A stretch of 64,000 nucleotides of DNA from the IMG/VR virus record IMGVR_UViG_3300027143_000001, positions 32,001 through 96,000 of that record; one strand, written 5' to 3'. The notes under the pieces are model-generated. The model was given only the letters and a program-made list of their open reading frames with translations, did not search any database and was not told the DNA's origin. Shown here piece by piece: positions 1,781 through 35,522 of the stretch. Made by a program: the position numbers and the translations under genes. This stretch comes from a virus. Within the stretch, counting starts at the first letter, position 1; every line of letters begins with the position of its first letter.

Positions 1781-1912
1781 TTATGGTGCTGGGTCTGGGT
1801 CAGGTACTTCCTCCCAGATCTCTACATAGTTGCCGTGAGCCTGGGCCTCCTCCAGACTTAGCGTTTCAATATACCCGTTGTCAAATAGCATCCTGTACTT
1901 ATGCATGATCAT
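1781..1912 (-). CDS. Small hypothetical protein (43 aa, MIMHKYRMLFDNG...EEVPDPDPAP)
   Basis: Hand translation. The ATG overlaps the upstream TAA (TAATG coupling) and the ORF fills the intergenic gap. Below the track length cut-off. Confidence 0.6.
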   Translation of the reverse strand: MIMHKYRMLFDNGYIETLSLEEAQAHGNYVEIWEEVPDPDPAP

Positions 1913-8200: not shown

Positions 8201-11200
8201 TTCATTGGGTATAAACTCAAACAGTTTGTCAAACTCCTGCATGTAACGCGCATAGTCTGGGTTACGCTTCTTGGCCTCTGCCTTCAGCTTCTTGATCTCT
8301 ACATTGATCTCTTTTACACGGTCCAGGTCAGACTCCTCCAGCAACACTTCGTTGCGGGCACCTACCTGGTGCATGATCACCTGGATCTCCAGATACTTCT
8401 TCTGCATCTCGTCGCGGATGTCCTGAGGCAGAAGCTGCTGTAACTTATAGTAAGAATCTACATAAGGTAAGCTGGCATTCTTTTGCAGCCATGTCATGTA
8501 GTTGTCTACTTCCTTTTCACGCTCGCGCTTTTTATCCAAGTACGTTTTCTCCAGCGTTTTCATATCACGCTCTTTTTCACGCATCTCCTTTTCCAACTTA
8601 GTGTTGGTAGGATCTGCAGCCAGTGCTTTGGCAGCTTTGCTGTACACACTGAATGAAGCAATGTAATTGCGGTTGGCATCATACACCTGCTTATTCATCT
8701 CACGCATATTTGTAGAATACGCACGGTATGTCTGCTCGTATGCCTCACTCATGGGTTTGGTAAAGTTGAGCACACGTTTTTCTATTGTCTTACCGCTTTT
8801 TGAATCCACCCATTGTACTGTTCTCCATTCGCTTACAAGCTTGTTAAGATCGCCAATACTCATGGATTTCAGTAGCTCATCACGTGCGTTGTCAAAATCA
8901 AGGTTAACCATATTACGCATGGCTTCACGCTGGGCGTTGGCCTGGGCGCGCTTGAACATCTGTACATATGCACTAACAATCATGTTACTGTCACTCACAC
9001 CTGCAATCAGCTCTCCACCGGATACAATGTTACCAAGACCTGCAAACGCGCTGTTGTTGAAAATATCTTTAGACGCCATGTGAAAATCACTGTTGGGGTC
9101 TGTGACACCCTCGATGAACTTTCTCAAGTCTGCATCATCAAATGACACACCTGTCTCCAGGTATTGCTCTAGGTTCTTGATCTGTATTTCCAGTGATGTC
9201 ATCTCGCCTACCAGGCTGTTACCATTGGCACCCAGCTTCTCCGCAATCTTCTCCTTATACTCTTTACTCAAAAACGACAATGTTGTATTCTTTAGCCAAG
9301 GCATCACACCCGCAAACTCGCCTTTTTGTAACTTGGCAAGCTTGGCTTTCAGGGCATTGATCTTGGGTATCAAACTTTCTTCTGACTGACGTTTGACTCC
9401 CTCAAAGGTTTTCTCTCCCATCATCTTCGCAATCTCTACCAGGTTCTCTAGTCCAGCCTCAGAAAAGTTTCCTTCAATGCGGGCATTAGCCAGCTCCATA
9501 GATTGCAACTTCTTGCTGATCTCAGAGTCCAACCCCAGCTTTTCTTTATTGGCAGGATTACGACGGCCCTCATCCACTATCTCTTTCAGTGCCATGATTA
9601 CACTCCACATCCCGCGGGACTTGTTGTACACCATACCTATCTGAGACTTGTGACGGTTCTTCTCCTTCTGGTTGGTTGCGTTCTTTAGTCCAGCAATAGC
9701 CACGTCACTGGATTCTTCCAGCTGGATCAAGTCGTTTTGCAGGTAGTCCAATACCAGGGAAAAGTTTACACTGGCTGAAGCGTCCTGTCTGGCCAGGATA
9801 TCATCAAAGCTGCGCAGTGTTTCTCTGCGGTCAGCCAATACCTTTCTGCGCTCCGGGTCTTTGTTTTCAGACTTCTCCAGGTCCGCAATCTGTTTGATGA
9901 TGTCATCCAGTTCTCTTTTTACTGCGTTCTTCAACGCGGCCATCAAACGCTCCATGCCTGCCTTTGAAGGTTCAAAGTCAAAAATGTTAGCTTTCTTCTT
10001 AGCCTCCTCTGTCTTAGCAGAACCAGGATAAGGTACTTCCTCATCAATGATACGACGCATGTCTGCAATACGCTGGTCACTGGTGCTAAGTTTGGTCTCT
10101 AACTCATAGTTAGTACCGGGCTGCAGTACACCGCGGGCGTAATCGTAGTAGTTATCCTTGTTAAATATGTGCAGGTTAGCTGCACGGTAACTTCCGCTGT
10201 CCTGATCTGTCTCATACAACAATGCTACAATCTGGCTTTTGATGGTGTTGATACCATGCTGGGCCAGAATGTTTTCATACGTCTTCAGCTGCAAGGTCCA
10301 TGTGTCATACGCTGTACGGTATTGTTTCTTTAGTAATCTCAGCGTACCTGCTTTACCATCAACCTTCATGTTTTTATGTGCCAGATGCAACATCACAGCA
10401 GCCTTATCCATGTACGTTTCTCCTGTAACAGGGTCAGTCACGGTAGTACCGCTCACTTTCTTTGTCTTAAAGTCAAAGATCTCTACGTTACCATCAGAGT
10501 CAATAAGCAACATGTCTAGTCGACCAATCACCATGCTACCACTCTTGGTCATACCGGTAACGGTAATCTCTGGCAGGATCATGTAGTTTTCGTCTGCTTT
10601 GGCAGTTACCTGGATCGCAATACGCGTAGCCAGGTTAAACATCATGTCTTTAGGAAAATCCTTTACTTCTTTTTTCTTGCCCTCTACGTAGAACTTCTCA
10701 TAGCGCTTCTCAAAGAAATCACGTGTCAGTACCTGAGAGATGTTACGACCGGTGCTTAGTGCATCCTGCTGTGCAAGTTCAATCACTTCATGCATAAAGA
10801 TTCCAAACTCTTTGAACTCCTCATACTTGCTGGGATCACCCTTGAAGTCTGCGGAACCGAGCAGGTTGGATACGCTTACGGTCTTTACAGTCTGCTCACC
10901 ACGAGCTGCCTTATCAATGTTATCCTCAAGGAATCTCTGATAAGAACGGTTCATATTGATGAGCGTCTGCAGTTGTGCATTCTGTGCATCTGTACCGCGG
11001 AGCATCATGTTCTCCAGGTGCTTCTCCTGCTGCTTGGCACGTATGAGTTTAAACTCATCGCTGGACAGTGAGATCTGTTCATCTTTCTCCTGGGTAGGCA
11101 GACTTTGCAAAAGTTTGTGTGCGGTGGCTACATCAGGCACCTCAAAGTTGTTCATTTTGTAGACCGCTAGTGCATCACCCTCGCTGCCAAGTGCGGCAAC

Positions 11201-11245
11201 AAGGGATTTCCATGCGGGGTCGTTAGGGTTTGGGCAAGAGCTCAT
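5207..11245 (-). CDS. Giant virion cargo/ejection protein with N-terminal PD-(D/E)XK nuclease-like domain (2012 aa)
   Basis: LPEITV...GRLDMLLIDSDGNVEIFDFKT...LQLKTY at ~10270-10590; long helical body; C-terminal hydrophobic helix followed by an acidic run; lies directly downstream of the vRNAP gene as in crAss-like phages. Confidence 0.7.
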   Translation of the reverse strand: MSSCPNPNDPAWKSLVAALGSEGDALAVYKMNNFEVPDVATAHKLLQSLPTQEKDEQISLSSDEFKLIRAKQQEKHLENMMLRGTDAQNAQLQTLINMNRSYQRFLEDNIDKAARGEQTVKTVSVSNLLGSADFKGDPSKYEEFKEFGIFMHEVIELAQQDALSTGRNISQVLTRDFFEKRYEKFYVEGKKKEVKDFPKDMMFNLATRIAIQVTAKADENYMILPEITVTGMTKSGSMVIGRLDMLLIDSDGNVEIFDFKTKKVSGTTVTDPVTGETYMDKAAVMLHLAHKNMKVDGKAGTLRLLKKQYRTAYDTWTLQLKTYENILAQHGINTIKSQIVALLYETDQDSGSYRAANLHIFNKDNYYDYARGVLQPGTNYELETKLSTSDQRIADMRRIIDEEVPYPGSAKTEEAKKKANIFDFEPSKAGMERLMAALKNAVKRELDDIIKQIADLEKSENKDPERRKVLADRRETLRSFDDILARQDASASVNFSLVLDYLQNDLIQLEESSDVAIAGLKNATNQKEKNRHKSQIGMVYNKSRGMWSVIMALKEIVDEGRRNPANKEKLGLDSEISKKLQSMELANARIEGNFSEAGLENLVEIAKMMGEKTFEGVKRQSEESLIPKINALKAKLAKLQKGEFAGVMPWLKNTTLSFLSKEYKEKIAEKLGANGNSLVGEMTSLEIQIKNLEQYLETGVSFDDADLRKFIEGVTDPNSDFHMASKDIFNNSAFAGLGNIVSGGELIAGVSDSNMIVSAYVQMFKRAQANAQREAMRNMVNLDFDNARDELLKSMSIGDLNKLVSEWRTVQWVDSKSGKTIEKRVLNFTKPMSEAYEQTYRAYSTNMREMNKQVYDANRNYIASFSVYSKAAKALAADPTNTKLEKEMREKERDMKTLEKTYLDKKREREKEVDNYMTWLQKNASLPYVDSYYKLQQLLPQDIRDEMQKKYLEIQVIMHQVGARNEVLLEESDLDRVKEINVEIKKLKAEAKKRNPDYARYMQEFDKLFEFIPNEGLFKRMYDNAFNRYADDPDMWAKWLKENTINRPKAEWYEKMAELYEARAAIFGTDDRIQKLMEEKRSIMRPHKDAAGRFNPKYMQAEEIEELDRIEGEIQDIIAERQEDKTAPKLTQDEKQELSAINATLEMLSMRQLSKYYTELFDDKYRMLDSAYRNMINAENDLATARAKGDPDVIKKAQKDLRFYTVQFDVVETDFEQWYNMNHYQPYQSIAKGYDVRGNVTPKTFNEEVVVNPSVYDQYMDTELPHPKYSIKRIRESAKNPAFLQSPDGIPMPKGITVDANGHYQIMPGYENSPNINDNYKKLMADPKVMTFYNKMMDMFFELQKKVEGRKVGYMVPGYAASLIENLAEEGIMGGLKKEWSKFVDKSVRAVGEQERVSNVYGDLGGRIRMRFTEQLDPNIQTQDAIGAMIKYVLEANFNIAMQDAVPMADNAITYLEMMSGRLKREIEAGATYVTDPVTGERKPVDMSVRQRELDKIIDQLKFERKKFAYGQEENEDSKARVLRKRLKQVMAYTAFIRMGFDVANQMKNYISGNVQTWIAAGNFKSDHFSQGDFMWAKGKIYGYDGFLANYFKDWGKVSDLTESTMLYRMINPLQKDYTKYVSDVTGGSTRRVMGKVMNIQEMGNMIQDKGDTEIGLTVMYAVMNKYRFKKIASFDASGKAVYEKDAEGNDVLVPAHEAYYKDSSGMLTRNPMVEYSEEDENRLRNIIYSEIRRAQGNYAQSDQAKFEQTVLGKLMFFYRKYLIPQVLNRFGYLRPNWEAGEVAVGYWRAVSMAWQYYGPANTLKHLVLGDKLARKFGSNMDLIDVMDKDTGQTSERQGDFYSRKIAQARRDMIMMAIMSMLSMAAMSYLRRKDDDDEEISMLEGNMLRVLWGVKGETTSMFPLGGGSDEYIRNFTSLTVYTRELNAIKRFGSHGLNYIMAMMYNGGEEPDPEYDGDVAYQIWKDAFYTRKAGRFEEGDAKIVKDIEDLTGIRNFRDFFDPEDRVQQMKKNQ

Positions 11246-11248
11246 AGG

Positions 11249-14200
11249 TTAGAGACAGGTAATATCTTCAATTATATCTTCAGTGAATTTCACGCCACGC
11301 GTCTTATCAACATATCGTTTTGCTTCCTCAGCAAATTTGTCAAACGGCATACGTTGGCTACTATTCTGGTACAAATATCGTAAAGCTTTGTCCGTCATGT
11401 TCAGGTCAACCAAATCTTTTTCAAGTGAGGCTTCCAGATTTCCATCTTCATCCTCAAACATGTCAGGCTGTAAGTCTTGCTGTTGCTGGGTTTGCGCAGG
11501 TTGTGCAACAAGAGCCATAATCGCCTTGCGGTTACCATCATTCTCTGCCCAGTTCATTTGTTTGAACGTTGCCATAGAGATGATGTTTCCTTTTGGTGTG
11601 ACCATGTACTGCTTGTCATTATACGTTACAATCTTTGCAGTCTGCGGTTGTGCGGTAAGGTTACGCTCTGCTACGGACACTTTAGAACCAGCTCCTTCTT
11701 TCGTTGGATTATAGATCTGTATGGTTCCGTTAGCGTTGATCTTTGTCACAATATAGACAGCATCATTAAACTTGACGTAGCGTCCAGGCTCGATGGTAAG
11801 TGTTGTTTCTTCAGCTTCTTCTACGGGCGCTTGCTCTTCAGTTTTCTCAGCTGGCTTTTGAGCAGGCTCACTAACTGTGATACCGCGTTTCTTCGCCAGG
11901 ATTCTAGCAGCCATACCCAGGTCACCAGAAATACCAGCACCCTCCGTCTCATCGACTTCTTCTTGTTCATCATTAGTTTCAATAACTTCTTCTTTTTCAG
12001 GAGTAGCTCTCAAGGTTTGTGTTGCTCTAAAATCTGTAGGGATGTAGTTTTCAAAATCATCATAGCTTACTTCCTCTACTTTCTCTACGCTCATCTCAGC
12101 AAATCTGTTGATCTCATCTGCATCAAAACCAAGTGGAGAGATGTTATTGCTCATCAGATTACCAGGTACAAGCGTGTAACGCGCAGTATCTCCAACCGTG
12201 TTGAAACCACCTTTCTTACCAGAAAGCGTGTCATACACACTCTGACCGATGGTGTTGCTTGTATCACTTCCTGCTCCCTGTAGCATGTATACAGAACCAT
12301 CCTGGAACTTAATCACCATGGGAAACATCCAGTTGTTCTCATCTCCCGGAGTAATGCCATAAGACATGGCAATACGCTGGATAGCAACATTGTTCAATCC
12401 ATAGATACCAAGTTTTTCACTAGACAAATCTAATATAAACTCAGGGCCCAGTTCTTTTTCACCCAATGGAAGTACGGTGTTACCACGCTGGCTGGTAGGT
12501 ACAATCTCACCGGCTTTACCAAACATGGCGTTCACCACATTGGTAACGGCTGCACGTTTCTCATCATCGCTCATGTCTACAGAAACCGGTAGGGTCTGCA
12601 TCAGGCGTTTGTTACCGCTGACGTTCAGGTTGTATCGGGTCTTGATGCGGGTGTTGTTGGGTTCTTTGATTGCGTTGTACACCATGTTGGTAAACAGCAT
12701 ATCAAAAGCATCATACACCGCGTCGTTGTCTGTTGCTCCAAAGTATTTCTGGATCATAGACTGGAACGCCTCTGGATCGTTGTGCGTGGTTTTCAGGGTG
12801 TCAACAAACATATCAATGTTGTTGCTTAGTTCTTTTCTGAATACGCGTGGCAGGAAGTTGTAGAACATGTTCTTCTTGTGCCCCATGCCTGCACGTGCAA
12901 GCTCATGGTAGAACAGTTTCTTTAGGAACAACTTACCTTCCTGGTCATTCATCAAACTCAATGCGTCATTGTATACGCCACTGGCCTCGTCGCTTTTCAG
13001 CTTTACCGTGTTGATCATCTTTATGAAACGCATAGGCAACTGCTCGTCACCCACCTGTGCAAGCTCAGATTCTACCACCTCTTCTTTAAGGAAGTTGAGG
13101 AACTTGTTGTTGGGGTACTTGGTCTGGAAGCTGCGAAGCTCCTCACCCAGCGTGTTTGTAAACCAGAACTCTGCGGTAAACGTATCTTGCAACGCTTTGT
13201 CTTCACGATCAATCAAACTCTGGATGTACTTATCACTTGACTTTCTGCTACCTGGTAACGTATCTCTCAAACGCTTGATAGCCACATAACCTACAATCGT
13301 CTTAGCAATCTGACTCTTGTCGTTGAACAACTCTTTAAACACGCGGTTGATCTCGCGGAAGAATGGTCCACGCTCCAGGAACAGGTTGGATGACTGTTGA
13401 TCCAGGTCGTTTGCCATCCTGTACAGCTGATTCCACACCTGATCGTTAATCATAGGTGCCATAGACTCTTCTGTAAAGATGCTCTCTGCCGTCATCATGG
13501 ATGACATGTTTTTGTAAATTGTATCAAAACTTGCAAAGTCAGGGTTAAGTGACTTGAGCATGTTGATCATGGAGCCTGCCGTTGAAATATCAAATGACTG
13601 AGCGGCTTGTTGTTCATACATAAACAACAGCACAAACTTCTTTGCTTCTTCTGACAAAACAGCTTTGCTCTTTAGTGCAGAAACATTGAATCCGATTTCG
13701 CCAATGCTGAGCTCATTATTCATCATGCGCTCGTCGTTGAGCATCTCACCACGATCTTTTGGTGTGGTAAACTCGATGACCAACTGGCTCTTGTTGAGCA
13801 TAGGCTCAAACATGGTAGAGTTTTCGTTCAATAAACCTGCCTCTTCCAGCTCCTGGTACACCTCTTCTGTCAATACAGCACTGGCTGCTTTTCTCACTTC
13901 TGAGGACAGTGATGCAAATTGCTGGTTGGTAGTAGAACGTAACGCGCGCTGTGTAGCAATTACATTTGCAGTTGCCTTGGCTATCTCAGGGATAAAGTTA
14001 AACCCAATGGCAAACTCAGGACGCAGACCCACACCGATCATGGCTAGGGTGACACCTGTGTTCACGTCGTTCATCTTCAGCGCAGATGGAATAGGCTCCT
14101 TAACACCATCAGCAAACATACCTAGTACGTTTCCTATCAGTGCAATTACACGCTGGTTCTCACCATTGATACTACCAAACTTGTTCAGACGATTCCAGTT

Positions 14201-17200
14201 CTTTCCGTCTGCTGTGGCATGGAACTGCCATACAGGCTTAGCCAACTCCAGCTGATACCAGCTAGCCATTGCCAAAAACTTGTTCATGTTGGCAGTGATA
14301 CCGATACCGTCCTTGAAGATACCATTGTCCGCCTTGGAGCGAATGATAGAACTGATGGTATAGTGGTTGGTCTTAAGACCTGAACGTTTCAGGTCAATGC
14401 CAAATTCTTTAGCAAGCTGTTTGAAACGATCCACGCTGGAACGCTCACGCTTGTACAGGTAGTTAAAGATATACTCGTTACCCAACATTGCCTGGCGTGC
14501 ATTCAGGTTCTGGTTCTGAAACTTATCCGCCACCAGGTCTTTCATGAACTCATGCTTCTCAAAAGCTTCAATGCTGATTGGGATATCAAACTTGCTAAAC
14601 ACATCAAACATGGCTTTTATCTTAGCAGCGCTGTACATAAACTTCTCTGCTGTAGATGCAGCCTCCCAAGACTCTTCCTGTAACGGACGGATGTTCTTGA
14701 TGGTGTCAAACAACTGTTGCTTTACGCCACGGATTTCTTCAATGGCTTTTCTGCGTCGCTCCTTGATATCCTTTATGCTGTTAGCACGCTTCTTGCCTTT
14801 CATCTTGGTCTCACCCAGCGCAATCTGATCTTTCAGATCATCCAGGTAATTTCCCAATTCATCACGCTGCTCAGAAAGTGCGTCAATATCTGATTGCATT
14901 TCATCCAGGCGTGCGCGAATCTGACCAAGGTTGACTGTTTTTACAAAGTCATCCTCAGTAAATCCAAGCATCTCCATGTAGCGGAAGATCTCTGAATCTG
15001 AGTCCATGTCAAATGAACCCTCTTCCATGATCTCACGCATGCGGTTAGCAATCAAATCACTAAACTCTTCTTTCTTGCTCATGAAGTGCATGAACTCTAC
15101 AAATTGTCCCTCACGTTCGTTACGGTAATTCTTGTAGTCTCCATACTTTACAAACTTGCCCATCATATTCTTGTAGTAAGAATACGCCTGTGCATACAAA
15201 GTGTCCACGTCAAAGTCAGAACCTGCTAGCAAGTGCACCATGTAAGGCACTACAATACCATTCAGGTTAGATGAGTCCATGTAGTCTACAGCTTTGAGGA
15301 TTACCATAGAACGCTTGTCCTCCGTAGGGATACGGGTAGCAAACATGCGGGTCAACTCCTGCTCAAAGAACTCTTTGAACTCAGGGTTGTCGCGGAATGG
15401 TTCTGGCAGAATACACTCTACCATGTAGATAGTACGACCGGTAGGATTACCGTCTTTGTCTAACTCTGCTTCCTGGGTTACGCCCAGTTTGCGGGTACCT
15501 ACATTGGTATACAGTTTTGGGTTCTTAGCATAGTCCGCAGTCTTGATCACCTTGCCGGTGGTCTTATCATAGAGTACGTCGTATCCAAACTGGCTGATGT
15601 GGATGTATTTACCTCCTGCTCCTTTCTCGTCAGTGACGTGCTTGGAATATTGAGAGAAGAAATAGTACTCCAGCATGCTGCGGATCTCCGGCATGTTGGG
15701 GCTATACAATGGTTTACCTGAAGCATCCAGTTCAAAGAGCTCCAGCATTTGCTGAGGCGCACCTTGTACAGACAAGTTCTCACGGATCATATCGTAGATC
15801 TTGCTGATCTTAAAGTTACCCGCTTCTACAATGTCGTTTACAATGCTCTCCGCCTGTTCTGCAATCTCTTTAGATACGCTGCTGTCATTGTTTAATGCGT
15901 CCAGTATCAAACGCGCATTTTGCTTATGGCGTTCTGTAACTGCTTTCTTACCCTTGAAGTCATTGATGACCACTGCCAGTTGACTGATCTGTGCTGCTGC
16001 ATCTGCAGATACATTCTCTGCTGCTGCGTTCTTAGAAAGTTCTTTCTGGCGGGCCGATGCATCTGAAGGCACCATGCCTCTCATAACATTAGTCAGGTAC
16101 AACAAGCGTGAACGTGTTGCGTCACGCAGCGAATCTTCATAGTCTTTTACAAGTCTCTCAGACAAATCGTCCAGGAACTTACGCTCTTTAGCATCCAACT
16201 TGCGATTGTCTGCAATCTCAATGAGGTCAGCCAGCATGTTAATGTCAGCTGGCAACAGCATCTTGGCTTGTACGGAAAGCTTGGCTTTATCTTTTACTCC
16301 TGAGGTTTCCACCTGCAGGAACTTAAATCGGTTGTCTACCTCCACCGCAATGAAATCAAGGTTCATGTAACCTTCTTTCTGTGGTGCAGTAAATACGCTG
16401 ATTGGCAACTTGGTTGTGTTCTTAGACGCCTCGTTATCCATCAACTGGTCAATCTGGAAGTACTCCATGGCATTGAGCATATCGTGCGCCATCTTACGGT
16501 GGGGCAATGGCTCATAGAATTCATGGATCATCTTTACAGTATCCTGGATCTGTCTAAATGTGCTGGCAGCGTCTTCACCATTAAGTCGCTGTGACTGGTA
16601 TACTTTACGCAAGTCATAGACTTTACTCCACATTGTGTGTAGCACATCATATACGTCCTGCTCTGTTTCAGCAGTACCGTCAAAGTACTCATCCTTGATG
16701 CGGCTGGTATCCAGACGGTCAAACAAGTTTTCAGATTGTTTGTGGTATGCATTGCGCGCTCCTACTACTGTCTTCTTAGCATTGTTCACCACCTTCATGG
16801 CCTGCAACGTCATGATCTCAGACTCTGTCAGTTTACGGTAGTGCTTTGCAATCAACAAATCGAGCACCTTGGACGTCAGACGACCCAGTTGTTCGTGCAT
16901 ATCTATCTGGTGCATAAGCAACGATATTGACTGACCGTCAAATATCTTTTGCAACATGCCTGCATACTTGCCACCAAAATCGTTTTCACCACTTTCTTCT
17001 GCAATGGCTTTCTTGTAATCATCCATCAGGATCTGCTTTACTTCAGCAGATGGTAATGGGTCATTCACAATCTCCTGTTCTGTAAAGTAAGGTCCATACT
17101 CAGGATAATCCTCGTGTATAAATCCTTTAATAGTTTCCAGCACAGCTGCGCGGTGATAACCTTCTTTCATGTTGTCACCACTGGCCAGGTATTTCTTGGC

Positions 17201-20200
17201 ACGCTTAACCATATCCTGCGCGTTCTTTACGTTCATCGCAGGGTTGCCGTCAAACACGTCGTTGAAATGCAGGGCGTTGGTCCAGTTGTTATAGAAGTAA
17301 TCTGCCAGGATATTCTCCCAGTTCATGCGGCTTACCGGTGAACCTTTCACCACGCCGTATTGCTCCATCAAACCAACAGGTTTCTGATAACCTATTTTCA
17401 GCTTGGATGGTAACATGGTGCTGGTGATGAATTCTACTTCAGCATCACCCGCAGCATTCTTTTCTTTTTTGCGCTCAATGATGTTGTTGAACTCCAGTAC
17501 TTTCAAGTACGTTTCAAACTGCTTCTTGGCATACTCTTCCAACAATAGTGGAAGACCGCCCAAATCAATCTCTTCAAACTCCAGTCCCTCTTCTGCTGAC
17601 TCTGCAAACACATCCTGGATAGCAGGGTTGGCTGCAAAGAAATCTTCAAGCTTGTGGAACTTGTATGCTTTCAGCGGATTACCATTGGCATCGGTGAACT
17701 GCACCTTGCCATTGGAATCACGACGACCGTTAAAGTCTTTGACAATGTTGTTGGCAGTATAAGACTCGTATTCTTTTTTCAGAGCATCACGACGGGCAAA
17801 CTCCTTACGCATGCTCATATACTCCTGGCGGATAACGCCTACCAGGTCTTCTACTACAGCAAGCACAGGTTTAGCCACACCATCCATCTTCACAGTTTTC
17901 ATACCGTCCTTGTTCGCAAACTCGCGGTATAGCGCTGATACTAAAAAGTTAGTGTTGGATGACTCCAGCTGATGAAACGTGCGTCGGTAAGTTTGTATGG
18001 TTACTTTACCATCTTTGGCATTGGAGGTTTCCTCCATGCGACTCAGAAATGATGTAAAGTTCAGGATGTGTAAAGCGTATTCATCCAGGTCCTTGAACGT
18101 CTTACCGTCCAGCACCGTGTCTCCCACCTTACCCTGCACACCACCAAACATCTCTACACGCAGGTTATTCAGCATAAGCTTGACCATCTTGGTCATCTCA
18201 TCGTCCTTACCCTGCATCACGCCACCCAACAAGTGGTTGTTGGCAATATAATCTTTCAGGTATGCCTCATAGTATGGGTCTTCCTGCAACATGCCATCCA
18301 GTCCTTTCTGGCGCACGTCTTCTGCAGTAATCACCATTGGTGAGTACTTCACATACTCATAGATTGGTTTACCTTCTGCATTGTACACCACCGAGCTGAA
18401 TGCTGTTGGGTCATACTTAACCATGAACTTGGCAGACTTACGCAGGATGCTATTGAAGCTTTTTACTTCAGTAGATGCTGTGTTCTCATCGTCCAGCATG
18501 TTCTCAAACATCTTACCGGGTGCTGTCTCAGAACCTGCAGCAGCTTCCAGTATGTTCTTCAGGTTGGTGAAGAATGTTTTCTCCAGGTATTCTTTCTCGT
18601 TGGCAAACGGACGGTCAAGCTCGTACTTGGCAAGGGTGTCTTCACTCAGTTTGCTGATGGTCTTCTCATTCTCCATCTCCTGGATAGCAATCAATGAAAA
18701 GCGCAACATGGATTTAGGAATCTGCAGACCAATAGCCCACATGTTCTTGTGCAAACTGTCTACCAGGTTGTCTAGTGTTTTCTGACTCTTGTCACCGGTA
18801 AACAGCGTCTCAGAAGAATCCACTTTGCTCATCAGTTTGATGAGTGCCAGCATAGCCTTGCGGTATTCTGGATTGTCCTTCTCAGACTTCTGTGTCAGGA
18901 TCATGCGTTCAACAAGCTTGTTTTTCTTGTTGTTGATGTCCTTGTATTGTATCTTGTCTGATATGCTGAAGCGAGGCGTGGTATCCTTTTGGATATCTTC
19001 ATCGCTCATCATGTCAATATCAACTGCTTCAGTGTACTGCATGTTGAACATCACATATCCAATGCGTGTTCCGTGCAGCACGTTCAGTATCATCTTGTAC
19101 ATCTGCACATTGGCCATAGGCATAGAGCCGTTGTCCAATAATGTCAGTTTCTTAATCTCATTGTATACCGCCTCCAGGTCCATGGCTTCGTTGATAAGAC
19201 CATCGTCATACCAGCGCTCATATACCATTTTCAAAGTAGGCAGGATTTGTTGTGGCTCTTTGTTAGCAGCAATCTTTAAAAGCGTAGGGGACATCTTGCG
19301 TCCGTCTACAATCGCTGGAACCAGGATGCCATACACAGGGTGAATATAGTCCCTGCGGATGGTGCTCAAGAACTTCTTGAATTCTGCAGGAAGAGAGTCC
19401 ATGCGGTTCAACTCATTGATGGATGCTTCAAAGTCACCAGACTCAGGATTCTCCTCACGGTTCTCTGCGTTCTCATCATGTGGTTTGACCGCTGCGTTCA
19501 TTGCATCTTCCAGGTTCTGCGTATTCAATGGATTGGTAGAGCTTACGTTGAACTCATTCAAACGCTTGCGCACCAGTGCCATCAATGCGGCCATAGATTC
19601 TTCACCATAGGTGTTGGTACCGTTGTCCAATACCATGGCATCATTGGTGTCTATGCCTGTGGTATTAATATCATACACATCTGTTTGCTTACCTGCTTTG
19701 TTATCACGCAGGCGCTGACCCAGGACAAAACGCATCTGGTTATACTTAGGCAAGAACTCCTTTTTGATGTCCGCGTGGAACTTAGGATCTGCCTGGCGCA
19801 GCAACATGTCTATGTTATACACTTCATTCAGCAGCACAGTAGCTGCGTCCTGAAACTTCTCTTCAAACTTTTTCTTGGTGTTGTCTGCCAGCATTTGGCG
19901 TACAACCATGTTAACCGCTTCTTTCTCCAGGTCATCCAGCAATATAGTAGGTCCACTCATCACACGACCCGTAGGTGTAGTGACCAGCTTTCTCAGACCC
20001 TTGATTTCAAAGGCTGCCTTGCCATCATATGCTTTTCCAGAGATAATACTTTCTTTGTACTTGCCAGTAGCGATGTCACTATATGTTTGTTCAATGACGT
20101 CACGGTTGGCTTTGAACATACCAATCAGTTTCTTGAGCAATTCAAACAACTTGCCTATCAGTCCTTTAGGGGCTGTGGCACGCTTGGCACGCATATAACG

Positions 20201-23200
20201 CTGGAACCCATCAGCTAGAATCTCTTCTGCTACCAGGTCCATCATCTCCGCTTTGTTGTACACAAAGTTGCGCACACGGGCAAACTCAATCAGGTTCTCA
20301 TCTCTGAACTGCTCTGCGTATTTAGGATTGCCAATAACCTCATTCAGCAACTCCCTGCGTTGCATGTCTGTCATCAGGTAGCGGAACACACCATGAAATG
20401 CTTCATGGAATACAATCCCTTTGCTCAGCATGGCTGCGTTGAGGTGCAATACGCGATCCTTAAACATACCCAACACTGTACCATCAATACGCATCAGGTC
20501 TGCAATGCTTTGCATGTCAGAAACCTCGATACCAAACTGACCCAATGCTTCCTTGAACCATGCAATCTCGCTCTTGATATCCTGCATGGATGCAGCTTCA
20601 TACTCGTCTGCAATCTTAAACGCCTCATCCTCCATACGGGGGATGTCAGGGAATGAACTTGGATTCTCTGCACTCTTAGCATCGCTTGCCATCATCTCAT
20701 TGACAATGCGCATTGCTTCTTCCATAGAAGGAACGTACTCTGCCACAACACCCTCCTCTTCGTGCTGGATGTCATAGCTGTCATTGATCTTCAAGATGGT
20801 GTAAGGACCCACCACCGCACTGTTGGCAGCAGGGTTGACCATGGCATCAATAGCATTAGATAACTCATCATACATCTGATTGAGGATGCTATCCAGTACA
20901 GCATTGACCACATCATCAGGTTGACCTTCCATTTGATCAGCCATCATTTCCATGCGACCCATAAAGTCGTTGTAGATCATGCTGTAGGTAGGATTGTTAA
21001 CCAGTTCCTGTTGTTGTGCGTTCAGCTCTTTAAGCGGAATACCATCTGCCAACATCTCAAATGCTTCAACAATTACATCTGCATTTACTACAGCTGCATC
21101 ATCGGTAAGCGTTGATGAGGGTTCTACAATATTCACAGGCGGTGCTGTGATAGACGTACCTTCACCAGACGGTGACGTAGGATTTACAATTACTTCTGTG
21201 GCAGGTGCTGTTGCAGTACTTGCCTTGGAGGTGATCAGGGTTTCTGCACGGTTGGAGTGCTTAACCGTAAAACGTTTAGCATTGCGATAGAACGATGGGG
21301 TGCCCGCTTCTTTTTTACGGTTCAGTCCCACGTGCGGCCACTTGTTACCTTCATTGTCTTTGTCTACTACCAGGTACTCCAGGTTAAACCCTTCGTTAGG
21401 GAATGTATAGGTACTGCGCAATGCAGCTTCTACCTCAGGGTGTTCACCCATTCTCTCTTGCAGCGGCTTAATCACCAAGTCAATCAGGAATTGTGCAAAC
21501 TTCTCACGGGTATCATTAAGATATTGTACAAGCTCTTGTGCAGATTCAGTCAGACTGTTGCTTTCTTCCATTACGCTTAGTGCACTGTAGAATGCCATAC
21601 GACCTTCTGCGGTACTAAGGTCATAGGATTTTAGTGATGGATTGTCAGCAATCGCTGCTTTAACCATCTTACCGTTAGGACCTAACTCATCTGCAAGACT
21701 AACCAGTCTGGCTTTGAATGCTTCTGAAAATGGAAACTGGAACGCGCTGCGATCCTGTAACATGACTCTCAGTGGACTGGTACTTGTTTTATCTTTAGGT
21801 ACAAGCTCAAACTTAAGCTTACCATTAAAGTATTCCAGGTTTAGGTAGAACGGTCCGCGTGCACCACTAAAACGGTACATAGCGTTAAACGCCTGGGCAG
21901 CTTTAGTGGGCTGTCCTTTACCAGTACGTTCCTTAGTGCTGACCATCTCTGACACCATGTTGATGAAATCCACAAACCCTTCATTTGTTTGCATGGGTTT
22001 CTGGTCTTCTAGTGTCAGGTAGCTGGAGGGTTGTCCGTCTTTGAAGCGTACTACAATCAGCGTATTCTTCTGGCTGTATTTGTTATCGCTAAATAATTCT
22101 TCTTTGATGAATGCATCAACATCTGTGATTCCCAGCTCATACTCAAAGTATTCAGCCTCATTGTATAAAGAGTCTCCAACCTTGATGCGCTCATTGGCAG
22201 CCAATACAGAGTTAGGCATAAAGAATGATGTCTCACGGTTACCAGTGCGATAAAATACAAAAGGCACTTTACGCTTGGTGGTGCTGATCACGTTCTCATC
22301 ATCGTCAATGGTAGCCACTTCCAGCTCCAGGCTCAGTGATGAATCCACGTTCATGAATTCCTCCAGGCTTGGGTTTTCCCTGGTGCGGCCTTGAGACATG
22401 TCAAAGCTCTCAAAGAACTCCTCTGTGAAATCCACAGAGTTTACGCCTTTGGAGAACATGTCATCCAGCATGTCAGCATGCTTTGCCTTAAACTGTTGCA
22501 ACTGGTTATAAGATTGCATCAGTGTAGACATGTCAGACTCGGTCAACTCCACCGGTCCCGCAGATCCGTTTAACAACGCCAGGCGCTGGAACTTCTCACG
22601 GTGTGCCGCATTATTGAAATCTACTTTCTCAGTAGTGTTGTTGTCGTATACAAATACGTAGTTGTCCAGAGTCCACAGGTTGAACAGGATGTTCTTTCCG
22701 TCTTCCATGGTGATCTCCCCTATCAGCTGAAACTTTTGCTCCTCCTGGCTAGGACGTGCCACAGACAATACCACACCACCTGGTGTGTTCTTCAGGAAGT
22801 TGATCTGTCCGGTGCTCTCAAATGTTTCATGCTTGCGATTGGCCAGTCCTGCCATCTCTGGATTTGATGCAGCCAGTTCCTGGATACGCTCCATACGGGC
22901 AGCAGCAATGCCTGGTCTTACCGCGTGGATTTTCACACGGCTCATGGGATTCTCCATGGCAGCCAGTTCATTTTTCAATCGCTCTCTGTCTTCTTCAAAC
23001 GCTGCCTGGATCTTCATCGCAGAGTGCAACATGGTTACAGGTACGCGCTCCTCTGAGGAATTACTCTCAAATGGTGCAGGTCTACCTGCTTTGTAGTTGC
23101 GGATGTCTTCTTTGCTTAACGCCACGGTCTCCCCTGTCTCGTCTATCATATACAGGATGCCGTCCTGGATGAATCCTTCTACCAGCTCGCGGTTGTTCAA

Positions 23201-23845
23201 GGATATCAGTACGTTGTTTAGCTCTGTTTCTGCAGGAAGTTCGTTCAGGTTAATATAACCTGTGTTCTGTAACAAGTCATCAAGCGCTGCACCCAGGTAC
23301 TTGCGCATGCTTGCGTTGTACGCAGTGTCTTCTGTATAGCTGTCGATGATATCGGTTACGCTTTTGCGGACCATGTCCACATAGCTGTCACGATCCTTTC
23401 CAGTGATACCGTTGGCGGTAAAGAATTGTCTGAGCAGGGTAATGATACCCTTGTCACCAAACAAATCACGGCCACGCTCAAACTCAGTTTGGCTGGCCAT
23501 CGCATCAATGCGGTCCTCAATGGTCTTGGCTGTAACAGCAGGCGCGGCTTTCTTGCCATACAAACCGTTCATGAACTTCATGTACGCTTTTGTGTCAGCA
23601 AGCAAGTGCACAGCACCCTTTACATCTGCAGCTTTACCAGGCTCGTAGAACTTAGCGTCTACACCGGCAAGCCCTTCATAAATGTAGGCCAGTTGATGGA
23701 TGGATAATTTTTTCTGCTCAGGAGTTAGGTCGCTGTCCATCACAAAGCGGACGGCATTGTCATAACTGCGGAAAGCAGCGGGATCATACTTGATCAGTTT
23801 TTGTACAAAAGAAATGTACTTGCCAGTTAGAATATCACAGGCCAT
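11249..23845 (-). CDS. Virion-packaged DNA-dependent RNA polymerase (crAss-like two-barrel vRNAP) with N-terminal zincin domain (4198 aa)
   Basis: Catalytic loop AGSDFDVDTLY (DFDVD at 15203-15217) preceded by RIPTEDKRSM; zincin motif FHEAFH (~20393-20410) followed by EEILAD; size and position typical of crAss-like vRNAPs. Confidence 0.9.
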   Translation of the reverse strand: MACDILTGKYISFVQKLIKYDPAAFRSYDNAVRFVMDSDLTPEQKKLSIHQLAYIYEGLAGVDAKFYEPGKAADVKGAVHLLADTKAYMKFMNGLYGKKAAPAVTAKTIEDRIDAMASQTEFERGRDLFGDKGIITLLRQFFTANGITGKDRDSYVDMVRKSVTDIIDSYTEDTAYNASMRKYLGAALDDLLQNTGYINLNELPAETELNNVLISLNNRELVEGFIQDGILYMIDETGETVALSKEDIRNYKAGRPAPFESNSSEERVPVTMLHSAMKIQAAFEEDRERLKNELAAMENPMSRVKIHAVRPGIAAARMERIQELAASNPEMAGLANRKHETFESTGQINFLKNTPGGVVLSVARPSQEEQKFQLIGEITMEDGKNILFNLWTLDNYVFVYDNNTTEKVDFNNAAHREKFQRLALLNGSAGPVELTESDMSTLMQSYNQLQQFKAKHADMLDDMFSKGVNSVDFTEEFFESFDMSQGRTRENPSLEEFMNVDSSLSLELEVATIDDDENVISTTKRKVPFVFYRTGNRETSFFMPNSVLAANERIKVGDSLYNEAEYFEYELGITDVDAFIKEELFSDNKYSQKNTLIVVRFKDGQPSSYLTLEDQKPMQTNEGFVDFINMVSEMVSTKERTGKGQPTKAAQAFNAMYRFSGARGPFYLNLEYFNGKLKFELVPKDKTSTSPLRVMLQDRSAFQFPFSEAFKARLVSLADELGPNGKMVKAAIADNPSLKSYDLSTAEGRMAFYSALSVMEESNSLTESAQELVQYLNDTREKFAQFLIDLVIKPLQERMGEHPEVEAALRSTYTFPNEGFNLEYLVVDKDNEGNKWPHVGLNRKKEAGTPSFYRNAKRFTVKHSNRAETLITSKASTATAPATEVIVNPTSPSGEGTSITAPPVNIVEPSSTLTDDAAVVNADVIVEAFEMLADGIPLKELNAQQQELVNNPTYSMIYNDFMGRMEMMADQMEGQPDDVVNAVLDSILNQMYDELSNAIDAMVNPAANSAVVGPYTILKINDSYDIQHEEEGVVAEYVPSMEEAMRIVNEMMASDAKSAENPSSFPDIPRMEDEAFKIADEYEAASMQDIKSEIAWFKEALGQFGIEVSDMQSIADLMRIDGTVLGMFKDRVLHLNAAMLSKGIVFHEAFHGVFRYLMTDMQRRELLNEVIGNPKYAEQFRDENLIEFARVRNFVYNKAEMMDLVAEEILADGFQRYMRAKRATAPKGLIGKLFELLKKLIGMFKANRDVIEQTYSDIATGKYKESIISGKAYDGKAAFEIKGLRKLVTTPTGRVMSGPTILLDDLEKEAVNMVVRQMLADNTKKKFEEKFQDAATVLLNEVYNIDMLLRQADPKFHADIKKEFLPKYNQMRFVLGQRLRDNKAGKQTDVYDINTTGIDTNDAMVLDNGTNTYGEESMAALMALVRKRLNEFNVSSTNPLNTQNLEDAMNAAVKPHDENAENREENPESGDFEASINELNRMDSLPAEFKKFLSTIRRDYIHPVYGILVPAIVDGRKMSPTLLKIAANKEPQQILPTLKMVYERWYDDGLINEAMDLEAVYNEIKKLTLLDNGSMPMANVQMYKMILNVLHGTRIGYVMFNMQYTEAVDIDMMSDEDIQKDTTPRFSISDKIQYKDINNKKNKLVERMILTQKSEKDNPEYRKAMLALIKLMSKVDSSETLFTGDKSQKTLDNLVDSLHKNMWAIGLQIPKSMLRFSLIAIQEMENEKTISKLSEDTLAKYELDRPFANEKEYLEKTFFTNLKNILEAAAGSETAPGKMFENMLDDENTASTEVKSFNSILRKSAKFMVKYDPTAFSSVVYNAEGKPIYEYVKYSPMVITAEDVRQKGLDGMLQEDPYYEAYLKDYIANNHLLGGVMQGKDDEMTKMVKLMLNNLRVEMFGGVQGKVGDTVLDGKTFKDLDEYALHILNFTSFLSRMEETSNAKDGKVTIQTYRRTFHQLESSNTNFLVSALYREFANKDGMKTVKMDGVAKPVLAVVEDLVGVIRQEYMSMRKEFARRDALKKEYESYTANNIVKDFNGRRDSNGKVQFTDANGNPLKAYKFHKLEDFFAANPAIQDVFAESAEEGLEFEEIDLGGLPLLLEEYAKKQFETYLKVLEFNNIIERKKEKNAAGDAEVEFITSTMLPSKLKIGYQKPVGLMEQYGVVKGSPVSRMNWENILADYFYNNWTNALHFNDVFDGNPAMNVKNAQDMVKRAKKYLASGDNMKEGYHRAAVLETIKGFIHEDYPEYGPYFTEQEIVNDPLPSAEVKQILMDDYKKAIAEESGENDFGGKYAGMLQKIFDGQSISLLMHQIDMHEQLGRLTSKVLDLLIAKHYRKLTESEIMTLQAMKVVNNAKKTVVGARNAYHKQSENLFDRLDTSRIKDEYFDGTAETEQDVYDVLHTMWSKVYDLRKVYQSQRLNGEDAASTFRQIQDTVKMIHEFYEPLPHRKMAHDMLNAMEYFQIDQLMDNEASKNTTKLPISVFTAPQKEGYMNLDFIAVEVDNRFKFLQVETSGVKDKAKLSVQAKMLLPADINMLADLIEIADNRKLDAKERKFLDDLSERLVKDYEDSLRDATRSRLLYLTNVMRGMVPSDASARQKELSKNAAAENVSADAAAQISQLAVVINDFKGKKAVTERHKQNARLILDALNNDSSVSKEIAEQAESIVNDIVEAGNFKISKIYDMIRENLSVQGAPQQMLELFELDASGKPLYSPNMPEIRSMLEYYFFSQYSKHVTDEKGAGGKYIHISQFGYDVLYDKTTGKVIKTADYAKNPKLYTNVGTRKLGVTQEAELDKDGNPTGRTIYMVECILPEPFRDNPEFKEFFEQELTRMFATRIPTEDKRSMVILKAVDYMDSSNLNGIVVPYMVHLLAGSDFDVDTLYAQAYSYYKNMMGKFVKYGDYKNYRNEREGQFVEFMHFMSKKEEFSDLIANRMREIMEEGSFDMDSDSEIFRYMEMLGFTEDDFVKTVNLGQIRARLDEMQSDIDALSEQRDELGNYLDDLKDQIALGETKMKGKKRANSIKDIKERRRKAIEEIRGVKQQLFDTIKNIRPLQEESWEAASTAEKFMYSAAKIKAMFDVFSKFDIPISIEAFEKHEFMKDLVADKFQNQNLNARQAMLGNEYIFNYLYKRERSSVDRFKQLAKEFGIDLKRSGLKTNHYTISSIIRSKADNGIFKDGIGITANMNKFLAMASWYQLELAKPVWQFHATADGKNWNRLNKFGSINGENQRVIALIGNVLGMFADGVKEPIPSALKMNDVNTGVTLAMIGVGLRPEFAIGFNFIPEIAKATANVIATQRALRSTTNQQFASLSSEVRKAASAVLTEEVYQELEEAGLLNENSTMFEPMLNKSQLVIEFTTPKDRGEMLNDERMMNNELSIGEIGFNVSALKSKAVLSEEAKKFVLLFMYEQQAAQSFDISTAGSMINMLKSLNPDFASFDTIYKNMSSMMTAESIFTEESMAPMINDQVWNQLYRMANDLDQQSSNLFLERGPFFREINRVFKELFNDKSQIAKTIVGYVAIKRLRDTLPGSRKSSDKYIQSLIDREDKALQDTFTAEFWFTNTLGEELRSFQTKYPNNKFLNFLKEEVVESELAQVGDEQLPMRFIKMINTVKLKSDEASGVYNDALSLMNDQEGKLFLKKLFYHELARAGMGHKKNMFYNFLPRVFRKELSNNIDMFVDTLKTTHNDPEAFQSMIQKYFGATDNDAVYDAFDMLFTNMVYNAIKEPNNTRIKTRYNLNVSGNKRLMQTLPVSVDMSDDEKRAAVTNVVNAMFGKAGEIVPTSQRGNTVLPLGEKELGPEFILDLSSEKLGIYGLNNVAIQRIAMSYGITPGDENNWMFPMVIKFQDGSVYMLQGAGSDTSNTIGQSVYDTLSGKKGGFNTVGDTARYTLVPGNLMSNNISPLGFDADEINRFAEMSVEKVEEVSYDDFENYIPTDFRATQTLRATPEKEEVIETNDEQEEVDETEGAGISGDLGMAARILAKKRGITVSEPAQKPAEKTEEQAPVEEAEETTLTIEPGRYVKFNDAVYIVTKINANGTIQIYNPTKEGAGSKVSVAERNLTAQPQTAKIVTYNDKQYMVTPKGNIISMATFKQMNWAENDGNRKAIMALVAQPAQTQQQQDLQPDMFEDEDGNLEASLEKDLVDLNMTDKALRYLYQNSSQRMPFDKFAEEAKRYVDKTRGVKFTEDIIEDITCL

Positions 23846-23877
23846 AACAGGTTAGCGTATTATCAGAGGGTACTGGA

Positions 23878-26800
23878 TTAGAAGCATGCATGTATATCGC
23901 GGAGGATATTTACAAGGTCTGTCTTCGTCACCGGTGCCTCAGTTTTTGTAGATGTGTCCTCCTCTACAAATTTACTAATTTCCTGTGTATCTTGGTTAGC
24001 TTTAGCTTTAAATTCTGCAAGTTTTTCGTCAAGCTCTACAAAATCTTCAAAAGTTAAACTTGCTGCATTCGCTGTGGTAGTTGTCTCAAACAGTGGTACA
24101 TCCTCGCCTGCAGGGCTTTCCACTACCACCGGAGCGTCTGCCGCTTCCTGTGTAGTTCCCTTTTTCAGAATACGTGTGGCAATTCCTTTCAAGGTACTTT
24201 TTCCCTTAGGGGTTTTGCTAAACTCTTCCAGGCTTGAAAACGGTGTATCACGTTTAGCGTTAGCTCTTGCCAGTGCCTCCAGTGCTTTGGAGTGGAACTC
24301 ATTCTTCTGTGTAAGCGTTGCACCCGTCATGTAGTTGTACACCACATCCAGTTCACTGCGCGTGCGGTCCAGCGATTGCTGTAGTTCATCTGCCTGTTCT
24401 TCTGTCAGGGGTTGGTCATTTACAGGTGTACCGTTATTGTCCACCACGTTCATACCATTGCCCTGCTGTTCTGTATGAAAATTATCACCGCTTTCTTCAC
24501 GTGCAGCCTGCTGACGTTGTTGGCGCTTGTTCCTTAATAACTGGGCAGCACTCATGGCTCCTGACTCTCCTACACCTTCTGTTTCATCTACCTCTTCAGG
24601 TTCCGTTTGCTCAGGTTTAACAACTGGTGCATACTGTTCTAAAGCAGCTAGTTCTGCGTTATATTCAGCAATAATATCAAAAGCTTGTTTTGGTGCATTA
24701 AGTTTATCAGCAACCGCATAACCAATAGGATTAGCTTTTTGTAACCAACTAATATAAGTACCTTTTGATAAATCTTCGGTAAACTTGGGTATGCCTAATA
24801 CTTCTGCATAATAATCAAGAAGCATTTGAGTTACAGGGGTTCTAGTATTAGATTGTGTATCTGGAAAATCTTCTCTTTTATATTTAGCTTCTGTATCAGC
24901 TTTAGCATCTGTAGCAGAATCTTGACCTTCTTGTGAAGATTGTCCTGAATTTTCTGAAGATGCCTTTGCAACAATACGGTGTGGCTCTTGCATGACTTGG
25001 ATATCCAGATCAGGATATTTGTCAGACACTGCCTGGATAGCGTCCAGGATAGCCTGACGGTCTTCTGGTGAAGCGTTCTGTAAACCGGTAGCAATGTGTA
25101 CACCCCCGTTGAGGATGTCCTCCTCAATCTGCTGTACCATTACTTCATTGCCTTCTTCTACTTGTTCCGGTGTGGCATTCACTGCCTGGCCACCGTTGAG
25201 CTCAGCCAACTTGGCTTCTGCCTCACTGCGGTTCTTGGTCCAAAACGATTGACCGTTCTCATCATACCAGTAGTCGTTGATCGTGGAATCCAGAATGCTA
25301 AAACCAAGATACTTGTCTTCAGCCAGGATATACTTTGGACCTGCCGCTGCAGCAGGTTGTTCCTCTTCCTCTTCTTCTTCTGTTTGCTGAGGTGTTGCGC
25401 CTGCTGGTGCAGGAGCAGGTGAAGGACCTGTAGGGTTCTGTGGTGTAGCAGCCGGTGCAGGATTTTCTGTATCGTCCACCCTGGTTTCTGTCTGTGGTGT
25501 TGCTTCTACTTCTGCTGCTTTGTAATCGTTTACCACCTCATCAATGTCAGTGGTGTATTTATCATACACTTCCTGTTCACGGCTTGTCAGTGGGATTTCA
25601 TCAAATAACTTATTGGCAATGCGCACCATAACCTGAAACGACGGGCGCATGTCTTTCTTAAAATTCTCATACTGCTCATCACTTAGGTCAGCATAACCTT
25701 CCATACTGATGTTTCTGCGGTAGATCTTAGCCATGACAGCTTTAAGGTTGCTGCTGATCTTTTCCACCTGCTCTTGTGCATACTTGTTCATCTGCACACC
25801 AGCGTTAGGATCAAGCACAATAGTCTCCAGGTTTCTGTACTCTTCACTCTTAAATGTAGCAGCTGCAATCTCCTCACGAATACGGTCACGCTCAGCTTTC
25901 TCAGAGTCGCTGTCCCCAAAGATCTTAAGGTTCATCACCGCAACCATCCATTGTTTCTGTGCAAGTTCTTCTACACTATCCAAATACTGCATTACCAGGT
26001 ACTTGAAATTACCGTCCGTCATGCGGTACAGCATCATCTCAAAGTTCTCTGGGTTAAACAATACGTCTACTGCTTTCATGTACTCCTTAGCGTCCTTATC
26101 CAGGCGCATGTAGTCAATGATCTTTTGGAAAGGCTCCTGGTACGGAAAGGTCATGTTCATGTCCACGTCCAGTCCAGCCTGTTTGTTTTTGAGTTGCATC
26201 AGTCGCGCAAAGTTGGTAAACACCTCTGGGTCGTGCATGTCAAACTCATCATCTTCCTCTACGGTAGATGTTTCTGTAAGTGTGGTACCGTCTGCTTGTG
26301 TACGTTCACCACTCATGGTGCGATAGGTCTTGCGACCAGGCTTGCGCTTTCCAATGAATGATTCCAAATCGTCTTCTTCAATCTCTTCCTCCATCTCCTG
26401 ACCCTGGTCATTGGTCACCGTGTTCTTGGTTGTACGCATACTCCACCACGATGTCCACGTATCAAGCTCTTGCAGTTCACTTTTCTTATCAGCAATTTGT
26501 TGCTCCAGATCTTTCTTTTGCTCAGGGGTAAGACCCTCCGCCTGCATGTTCTGCATCAGGATGTTGATGTCTGCTGATATGTTACCAATCTCCGCTTTCA
26601 GGGCATTAGGGTTTGTCAGAATGCGCAGTGCATAATCTGCAGAGTCTGCAATTCCTGCAATAGAGCGGATGTCATTGGATAATTGTTGTACACGCTTAAC
26701 AGTCATCTCCCCTTTGATTGCATTGTATGCAATTACAGAGATTGCCTCGTCTTGTACCTGGCGCATTACAGCAGCCACGTAGCGGTCACGTGAACCTTCC

Positions 26801-35419: not shown

Positions 35420-35458
35420 AAACTTTAGAAGTTTAAAAGGGTAGGAAGGCTAAACATC

Positions 35459-35478
35459 TCACATTTAGAATTTACAAA
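35459..35478 (-). promoter_or_regulatory. Putative phage late-promoter motif, copy 3 (TTTGTAAATTCTAAATGTGA)
   Basis: Near-identical to the copies at 52039-52058 and 59138-59157; all three are intergenic and upstream of minus-strand starts. Confidence 0.55.
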
Positions 35479-35522
35479 TTTAATCGCAAAAGTCCTACTC
35501 TTGTAGATGTTTTTTGTAGAGG

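Follow-up and report, generated by a model that had tools for sequence, protein, structure and literature searches.

It is an open question how podophage-like viruses fit several megadaltons of protein into a particle and then eject giant enzymes in order through a channel narrower than the folds of those enzymes (PMC10172136; PMC13434306). In the crassviruses phi14:2 and crAss001, the products g067-g066-g065 and gp47/gp50/gp49, respectively, are virion proteins by mass spectrometry (bioRxiv 10.1101/2020.03.07.982082; PMC10172136), and the structure of the phi14:2 polymerase gp66 has been published (bioRxiv 10.1101/2020.03.07.982082, Nature 2021). The authors of the crAss001 study expect the order of extrusion to depend on packing and on mutual interactions, and both the tail and the capsid of crAss001 include parts that are joined by intermolecular disulfides (PMC10172136). 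In cyanopodophage A4, cryo-electron microscopy has revealed that gp27 inserts its C-terminal helix into gp26 and that a disulfide joins Cys1715 of the former to Cys5 of the latter (PNAS 2025, PMC12002296). Here we describe cysteines (Cys) that face each other across the gene breaks of a crAss-like cargo block, and that probably link its giant proteins end to end. The block lies in a stretch of 64,000 nucleotides (nt), positions 32,001 to 96,000 of IMG/VR virus record IMGVR_UViG_3300027143_000001, which is 109 kilobases (kb) long and 85% complete; the whole of this stretch is referred to as the window.

Three adjacent genes on the minus strand make up the block, and the argument turns on the following features (window coordinates; aa, amino acids; ORF, open reading frame):

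23878..29148, minus: 1756-aa cargo protein (ORF call), predicted first link; its sole Cys is residue 1755
23881..23922, minus: putative C-terminal clasp of the 1756-aa protein, its last 14 residues, TDLVNILRDIHACF, with amphipathic spacing; the Cys1755 codon is 23884-23886
11249..23845, minus: 4198-aa predicted virion RNA polymerase protein, predicted middle link; Cys at residues 3, 2811 and 4197
23837..23839, minus: codon of polymerase Cys3 (MACDIL; script count), on the side of the 1756-aa protein
20393..20407, minus: HEAFH zincin-type motif, polymerase residues 1147-1151; H1147, E1148 and H1151 invariant in alignment A1
15413..15415, minus: Cys2811 of the polymerase protein (MVECILP), the only internal Cys among the three proteins
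15203..15217, minus: DFDVD catalytic motif of the crAss-type RNA polymerase, residues 2877-2881; D2877, D2879 and D2881 invariant in A1
11252..11434, minus: C-terminal module of the polymerase protein, residues 4138-4198, ending EDIIEDITCL; the Cys4197 codon is 11255-11257
5207..11245, minus: 2012-aa protein, predicted last link, phi14:2 gp65 orthologue (BLASTP to g065); its sole Cys is residue 4
11207..11245, minus: putative N-terminal clasp motif of the 2012-aa protein, MSSCPNPNDPAWK; the Cys4 codon is 11234-11236
10391..10822, minus: PD-(D/E)XK nuclease domain of the 2012-aa protein, residues 142-285 (Pfam PF12705)

Together, the three proteins hold only five Cys in 7,966 residues by script count. 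Four of the five sit two to four residues from a terminus that faces the neighbouring protein (the 1756-aa protein ends ...IHACF, the polymerase protein runs MACDIL...DITCL, and the 2012-aa protein begins MSSCPN...), and both outer ends are free of Cys. The probability that at least four of five Cys fall by chance within the 20 facing-terminal positions of 7,966 is about 2e-10. Cys content in the three cargo proteins is 0.05-0.07%, compared with 0.7-5.9% in the capsid, tail and fibre genes of the window. An earlier note on this DNA had given the positions of these Cys, counted a single internal one and called the outer ends Cys-free; the script count agrees throughout, with no internal Cys overlooked. 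The ending I-x-x-D-I-x(x)-C-hydrophobic, which the note had ascribed to both C-termini, is likewise present in both.

Compared by sequence, the three genes are the RNA-polymerase cargo block of a crAss-like phage. Residues 2674-2950 of the polymerase protein match annotated crAss RNA polymerase catalytic subunits (tblastn; 22 crAss records, E down to 1e-14) at 25-28% identity over the catalytic part, and the protein matches crAss001 gp50, phi14:2 g066 and p-crAssphage gp44 by BLASTP. DFDVD is invariant across 28 aligned homologues, and the DFDxD motif is the signature of this polymerase family (bioRxiv 10.1101/2020.03.07.982082). The zincin region matches residues 2037-2212 of crAss001 gp47. 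That the third protein bears a nuclease, as had been proposed, is supported by the PF12705 match (E = 1.1e-5; 25.9 bits, with the threshold at 22) and by D244, D258 and K260, which are invariant in alignment A2. The label of membrane channel that the earlier note gave to the 1756-aa protein finds no such backing, as this protein has no hydrophobic segment at a Kyte-Doolittle value of 1.6 or above and no family match in PHROGs or Pfam. PHROGs has no family for any of the three proteins, a Pfam scan of all three returned nothing above threshold except PD-(D/E)XK, PDB sequence searches gave no match for the cargo proteins, and IMG/VR scans with single proteins found one close relative only. From homology and gene position, all three are presumably carried in the virion and ejected.

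A homologue search over 5.8 billion proteins yielded 82 family members for the 2012-aa protein, 79 for the polymerase protein and 62 for the 1756-aa protein. The terminal Cys are retained down to about 25% identity in the three families, and Cys is the sole invariant residue at each terminus while its flanks vary. In the 1756-aa family (97,623 residues, 62 homologues), 60 of 62 Cys are terminal, nearly all members having a single Cys 0-3 residues from the end. Among 34 distinct termini of this family, hydrophobic residues recur at positions -10, -9, -6, -3 and +1 relative to the invariant Cys, a spacing that points to an amphipathic helix as the C-terminal clasp; in the window protein, an acidic low-complexity tether precedes the clasp TDLVNILRDIHACF. 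Terminal Cys account for 141 of 215 in 321,615 residues and 80 of 170 in 163,886 residues in the other two families. Within the 2012-aa family, 80 of 82 members carry a Cys at position 3-8, inside the motif M-x-x-C-P-N-x-N-x-P-E-W-K; the two exceptions are a member whose Cys is at position 13 and another that seems to be truncated at the N-terminus. C4 of the 2012-aa protein is invariant in the 42-row alignment A2, as is C4197 of the polymerase protein in alignment A1. In the polymerase family, the N-terminal Cys lies at position 3-7 unless the protein begins with a longer N-terminal extension, and an internal Cys of the Cys2811 type recurs near the catalytic region in many homologues.

These Cys follow gene architecture. 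In relatives, the cargo block comes as a single polypeptide or is divided into two, three, four or more. IMG/VR was scanned with alignments, which yielded 76 loci, and adjacent same-strand gene pairs from 77 loci were scored for terminal Cys (ORF starts in the compared loci are our own calls, at the first ATG). Both facing termini carry Cys in 121 of 282 adjacent pairs and neither does in 141, leaving 20 discordant pairs, most of which are crAss001-like loci with the partner gene elsewhere, three loci with an inserted ORF, or unrelated Cys-rich tail genes. The pairing of C-terminal and N-terminal Cys in adjacent genes, which the earlier note had named as a check on orthologues, is conserved across Crassvirales. 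Where polymerases end in ..DENNC, a linker ORF of 149-345 aa precedes the last protein and has exactly two Cys, one at position 3-5 and the other one residue from the end. The last 60 linker residues match window polymerase residues 4138-4198 (BLASTP; linker ORFs of L010, L024 and L025), and the fused polymerase of the window has no Cys at the site homologous to the linker break. A linker search over 1.84 billion representatives recovered members 135-875 aa long, each with one Cys at either end and no other, along with forms of 1,213-1,952 aa that are headed by the linker start, with the linker fused to the last subunit, and have the N-terminal Cys only. Four-protein chains (L042, L065) show a Cys pair at every junction. 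At the other end of the block, a 1756-like segment is fused ahead of the polymerase in L061 and L063 (BLASTP), and these proteins have the C-terminal Cys only; L039 shares this layout and gene order, its polymerase gene being preceded immediately by an 887-like gene that is free of Cys, and from gene order only would be a similar fusion of a 1756-like protein with the polymerase. The 1756-aa-family profile gave no match to long polymerase forms that lack the N-terminal Cys. A maximum-likelihood tree of the catalytic core, built quickly, implies four or more changes in the state of the first junction and seven or more in the number of junctions downstream, as rough counts.

The cultured and reference crassviruses show the same arrangement (L-n, n residues before the C-terminal end):

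phi14:2: g067, 1797 aa, one Cys, the last residue; g066, 2180 aa, only Cys3 and L-1; g065, 1421 aa, only Cys3
crAss001: gp47, one Cys at L-2; gp50, Cys at 5, 1334 and L-8; gp49, only Cys5
p-crAssphage: gp45, Cys at L-1, ending SFSCM; gp44, starting MSC (Cys3), without a C-terminal Cys; last subunit fused into gp44

In p-crAssphage gp44, which unites the catalytic and last subunits, no Cys pair is present at the fused site. Since crAss001 gp47 is encoded on the strand opposite to gp50 and gp49, the terminal-Cys rule must act on proteins rather than on junction DNA. The cargo blocks of phi14:2 and crAss001 share with the window a homologous DFDxD polymerase, a zincin module, a homologous last subunit and the terminal-Cys rule; the window polymerase protein differs in being larger (4198 aa) than its crAss001 and phi14:2 counterparts and in holding the zincin module that crAss001 has in gp47. 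The zincin HExxH thus lies within the polymerase protein in the window and in the preceding protein in crAss001 (gp47) and p-crAssphage (gp45), so that module borders and gene borders are uncoupled in the cargo block. It also follows that the first break of crAss001 and that of the window fall at non-homologous places, yet both carry a Cys pair.

The residues around the Cys vary in a matched fashion across the junctions. Upstream proteins ending in ..KCL pair with starts of the type M..CPN..PEW in 14 of 17 cases (the other three such starts follow ..KKLC, ..KRCNL and ..KKCNL), those ending in ..DENNC pair with M.KC[RK]xDIK, and those ending in ..CF[SK] pair with MAC[QE]IQT.KY. This co-variation suggests specific docking, by which, we infer, the order of the links could be fixed. 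A co-fold of the second junction from window sequences, run without alignments (2012-aa protein residues 1-420 with polymerase residues 4050-4198), gave a score of 0.00, with the partner's own fold uncertain, and weighs on neither side. The earlier proposal that the C-terminal Cys of one protein belongs with the N-terminal Cys of the next is supported by the pairs at every gene break, also at non-homologous ones, their absence at fused junctions and these cognate flanks.

What might such pairs do? We consider it probable that the docked termini are joined by a disulfide and that the proteins behave as one end-to-end thread. At each break, the upstream protein would end in a short clasp, an amphipathic helix in the window, with its Cys 0-8 residues from the end, and the downstream protein would start with the cognate motif, with its Cys at position 3-7. 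The two termini would dock specifically, and their thiols would form an intermolecular disulfide in the assembled particle, so that the separate proteins could act as a single thread of about 8,000 residues running from the 1756-aa protein through the polymerase to the 2012-aa protein. Other Cys would have been purged almost completely so that wrong or internal cross-links cannot block unfolding in the tail channel. As the cargo is packaged and ejected, the thread would preserve its stoichiometry and order; the links would then be opened by the reducing cytoplasm of the host.

Several observations speak against this disulfide thread. No such bond has been observed in any crassvirus, and the ejection order and the role of reduction are purely inferred. 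A dedicated oxidising system is not evident in the phage record: no thioredoxin (PF00085) was found in the 109-kb, 85% complete record, and a search of it for Erv1/Alr (PF04777) gave no match, but the control for that search matched nowhere either, making it uninformative. Many hosts are anaerobes, which bears on when and where oxidation could take place. The loci are interrelated, so that the two-by-two counts of terminal Cys are not independent events, and the catalytic-core tree was built quickly and has long branches. Three kinds of loci have the Cys close to the start of the protein only on the assumption that translation begins at a later ATG. The longest polymerase ORF in L054-L059, L042 and L062 begins 10-14 codons before an internal M-S-C or M-K-I-Y-C, and the terminal-Cys rule suggests the later ATG as the true polymerase start in these loci. 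Finally, the crAss001-like locus L067 (5639-17417) has Cys-rich polymerase proteins (28 and 11 Cys) and a C-terminal ..DDIC whose Cys lies 26 residues before the end, which makes it an outlier in both depletion and position.

Of the other explanations, the closest to a disulfide is that the terminal Cys pair bridges a metal ion such as zinc at the docking interface, which would leave the topology of a reversible end-to-end clasp unchanged. Two close thiols can bind metal, the first clasp offers a nearby His and Asp in D-I-H-A-C, and the zincin domain implies that the block handles zinc; however, a stable site needs three or four ligands, whereas Cys alone is invariant at each terminus, His occurs in just 18% of distinct termini and no further potential ligand is conserved. 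The number of terminal Cys is also always two per junction in chains of any length, and together with the invariance of Cys alone this favours a disulfide over a metal site. Given that the sole solved analogue, in A4, is a disulfide as well, we regard metal bridging as unlikely. We judge it similarly unlikely that each terminal Cys acts alone, whether by forming homodimers through C-C or N-N ends or by anchoring its protein to the portal, the capsid interior or a scaffold. The conserved terminal motifs could be packaging signals, a role that capsid-targeting sequences play in other phages. Such independent use would not account for the joint gain and loss of the C- and N-terminal Cys at a given break, for the Cys-free outer ends of the chain or for the co-variation of motifs across junctions, and neighbouring packaged cargo proteins do without terminal Cys. 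On its side is that crAss001 may hold several copies of each protein (PMC10172136).

The invariant HExxH of the polymerase protein brings to mind a further possibility, namely that the zincin protease of the block is under the control of the terminal Cys, in the manner of the cysteine switch of matrix metalloproteinases, or that they are remnants of ancestral polyprotein processing sites, and the literature does expect fused polyprotein forms to be cleaved. But one zinc site cannot employ two to eight terminal Cys, and Cys does not belong to a cleavage motif, as it is absent from the homologous sites of the fused forms; with A4 gp27/gp26 displaying the same signature as a disulfide, a link to the protease seems very improbable. 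As for chance, or shared ancestry without function, related sequences do inherit their termini, but we give this almost no credence in view of the chance value of about 2e-10 for the window, the keeping of Cys at about 25% identity while flanks vary, and the gain or loss of pairs with architecture at least 11 times on the tree, also at non-homologous break points.

Some candidates were rejected outright. A DNA or RNA motif at the junctions is excluded by the location of crAss001 gp47 on the other strand and by gap lengths between -23 and about 1,000 nt. A split intein would need one half of about 100 aa behind the N-extein and another of about 35 aa ahead of a Cys, Ser or Thr at +1. With Cys only 0-8 residues before the C-terminal end and at positions 3-7 of the next protein, there is no space for them; Pfam gave no Hint or intein match in the three proteins. 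One Cys4 site for all four termini is excluded because chains with one, two, three and four junctions always show two Cys per junction.

The neighbours of the block mark the limits of the putative chain:

29154..31817, minus: 887-aa upstream neighbour, 0 Cys, outside the chain and marking its start
1912..5151, minus: 1079-aa downstream neighbour, tail-fibre-like, without terminal Cys, marking the chain end

Homologues of the 887-aa neighbour in related loci have 0 Cys as well. The 1079-aa neighbour has Cys at residues 115, 121 and 985 and matches the tail fiber protein family phrog_9729 (E = 2.3e-25). Farther upstream of the cargo block, the window encodes a large structural protein of the virion. 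Other low-Cys proteins of the block (31817-43576, 1912-5151) hold their few Cys as close pairs: C826/C868 in the 1200-aa, C61/C64 in the 692-aa, C1202/C1216 in the 1264-aa, C206/C211 in the 717-aa and C115/C121 (plus C985) in the 1079-aa protein. The pair of the 1200-aa family keeps the same spacing of roughly 35-50 residues in several related loci and is absent in others. These close pairs may be local intramolecular disulfides or small metal sites. In three loci (L060:16786-17283, L068:8776-9264 and L071:17099-17590), an ORF of 162-165 aa without terminal Cys stands between a Cys-ended polymerase and a Cys-started last protein; because the Cys pair skips it, this ORF looks like an inserted gene outside the chain. 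Some polymerase homologues (P0112, P0119, P0122, P0127, P0129, P0132, P0134, P0131, P0140-P0143 and P0158) carry extra Pfam domains in precomputed annotation, namely RNase H (PF00075), YbiA-like DUF1768 (PF08719) and 2OG-Fe(II) oxygenase/AlkB-like (PF13532), and the giant polymerase cargo proteins thus seem to acquire additional enzyme modules.

If the proposed tether is real, its reversible covalent nature would explain the order and stoichiometry of the cargo, the near-absence of Cys in the cargo proteins, and the free splitting and fusing of the block in evolution, and its reach would extend to the phage order that is most abundant in the human gut. Terminal Cys pairs also offer an aid to annotation, by showing which neighbouring ORFs join the cargo chain and where the true start codons lie. 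One could go further and imagine a disulfide-stitched 'virtual polyprotein' throughout Crassvirales, in which cognate clasps would be an address code arranging two to five products in gene order into a thread of about 8,000 residues that exits processively via the tail, with cytoplasmic reduction separating the parts and timing the activation of polymerase, protease and nuclease. This wider view is a possibility that we consider less likely than not, and more doubtful than the disulfide thread itself.

Full-text literature searches found no description of these terminal Cys in crassviruses, and neither the phi14:2 preprint (bioRxiv 10.1101/2020.03.07.982082) nor the crAss001 atlas (PMC10172136) mentions the cysteines of these proteins. 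The earlier note's statement that nothing of this kind had been described stands for crassviruses and falls for phages at large, given the one such disulfide seen in A4 by cryo-electron microscopy. A single end-to-end disulfide between ejection proteins was, therefore, already known, and the multi-junction rule of crassviruses is new to the literature found.

The comparison with A4 is close in form. In the genome of A4 (Anabaena phage A-4L), we find one Cys each in gp27 and gp26, at L-2 and position 5, respectively, and the two resemble the junctions of the window in being large ejection proteins from adjacent genes, with terminal Cys that face each other and few Cys otherwise. A-4L gp26 and gp27 have no BLASTP match to the three window proteins below E = 0.1, so the resemblance is in how the systems work and not one of descent; A-4L gp29 has one 54-residue BLASTP match to the window proteins (E = 8e-4). 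Unlike the chain proposed here, A4 lacks a polymerase and has a single link, which joins two side-by-side proteins of a pentameric ring, and end-to-end threading is not shown there either. The A4 paper (PMC12002296) reports one bond, and no multi-link chain, Cys depletion, covariation with fission and fusion, or general rule. Coliphage N4, like the window, has a giant, Cys-depleted packaged polymerase that is ejected via a narrow tail and is thought to unfold in transit, but its polymerase is an unbroken single chain of a different fold family (PMC13434306), with no Cys at all. Indeed, N4 gp50 (3500 aa), gp51 and gp52 contain 0 Cys in 4,294 residues (NC_008720 34523-47523), and from this Cys-free cargo it would appear that ejected proteins avoid Cys unless one is needed.

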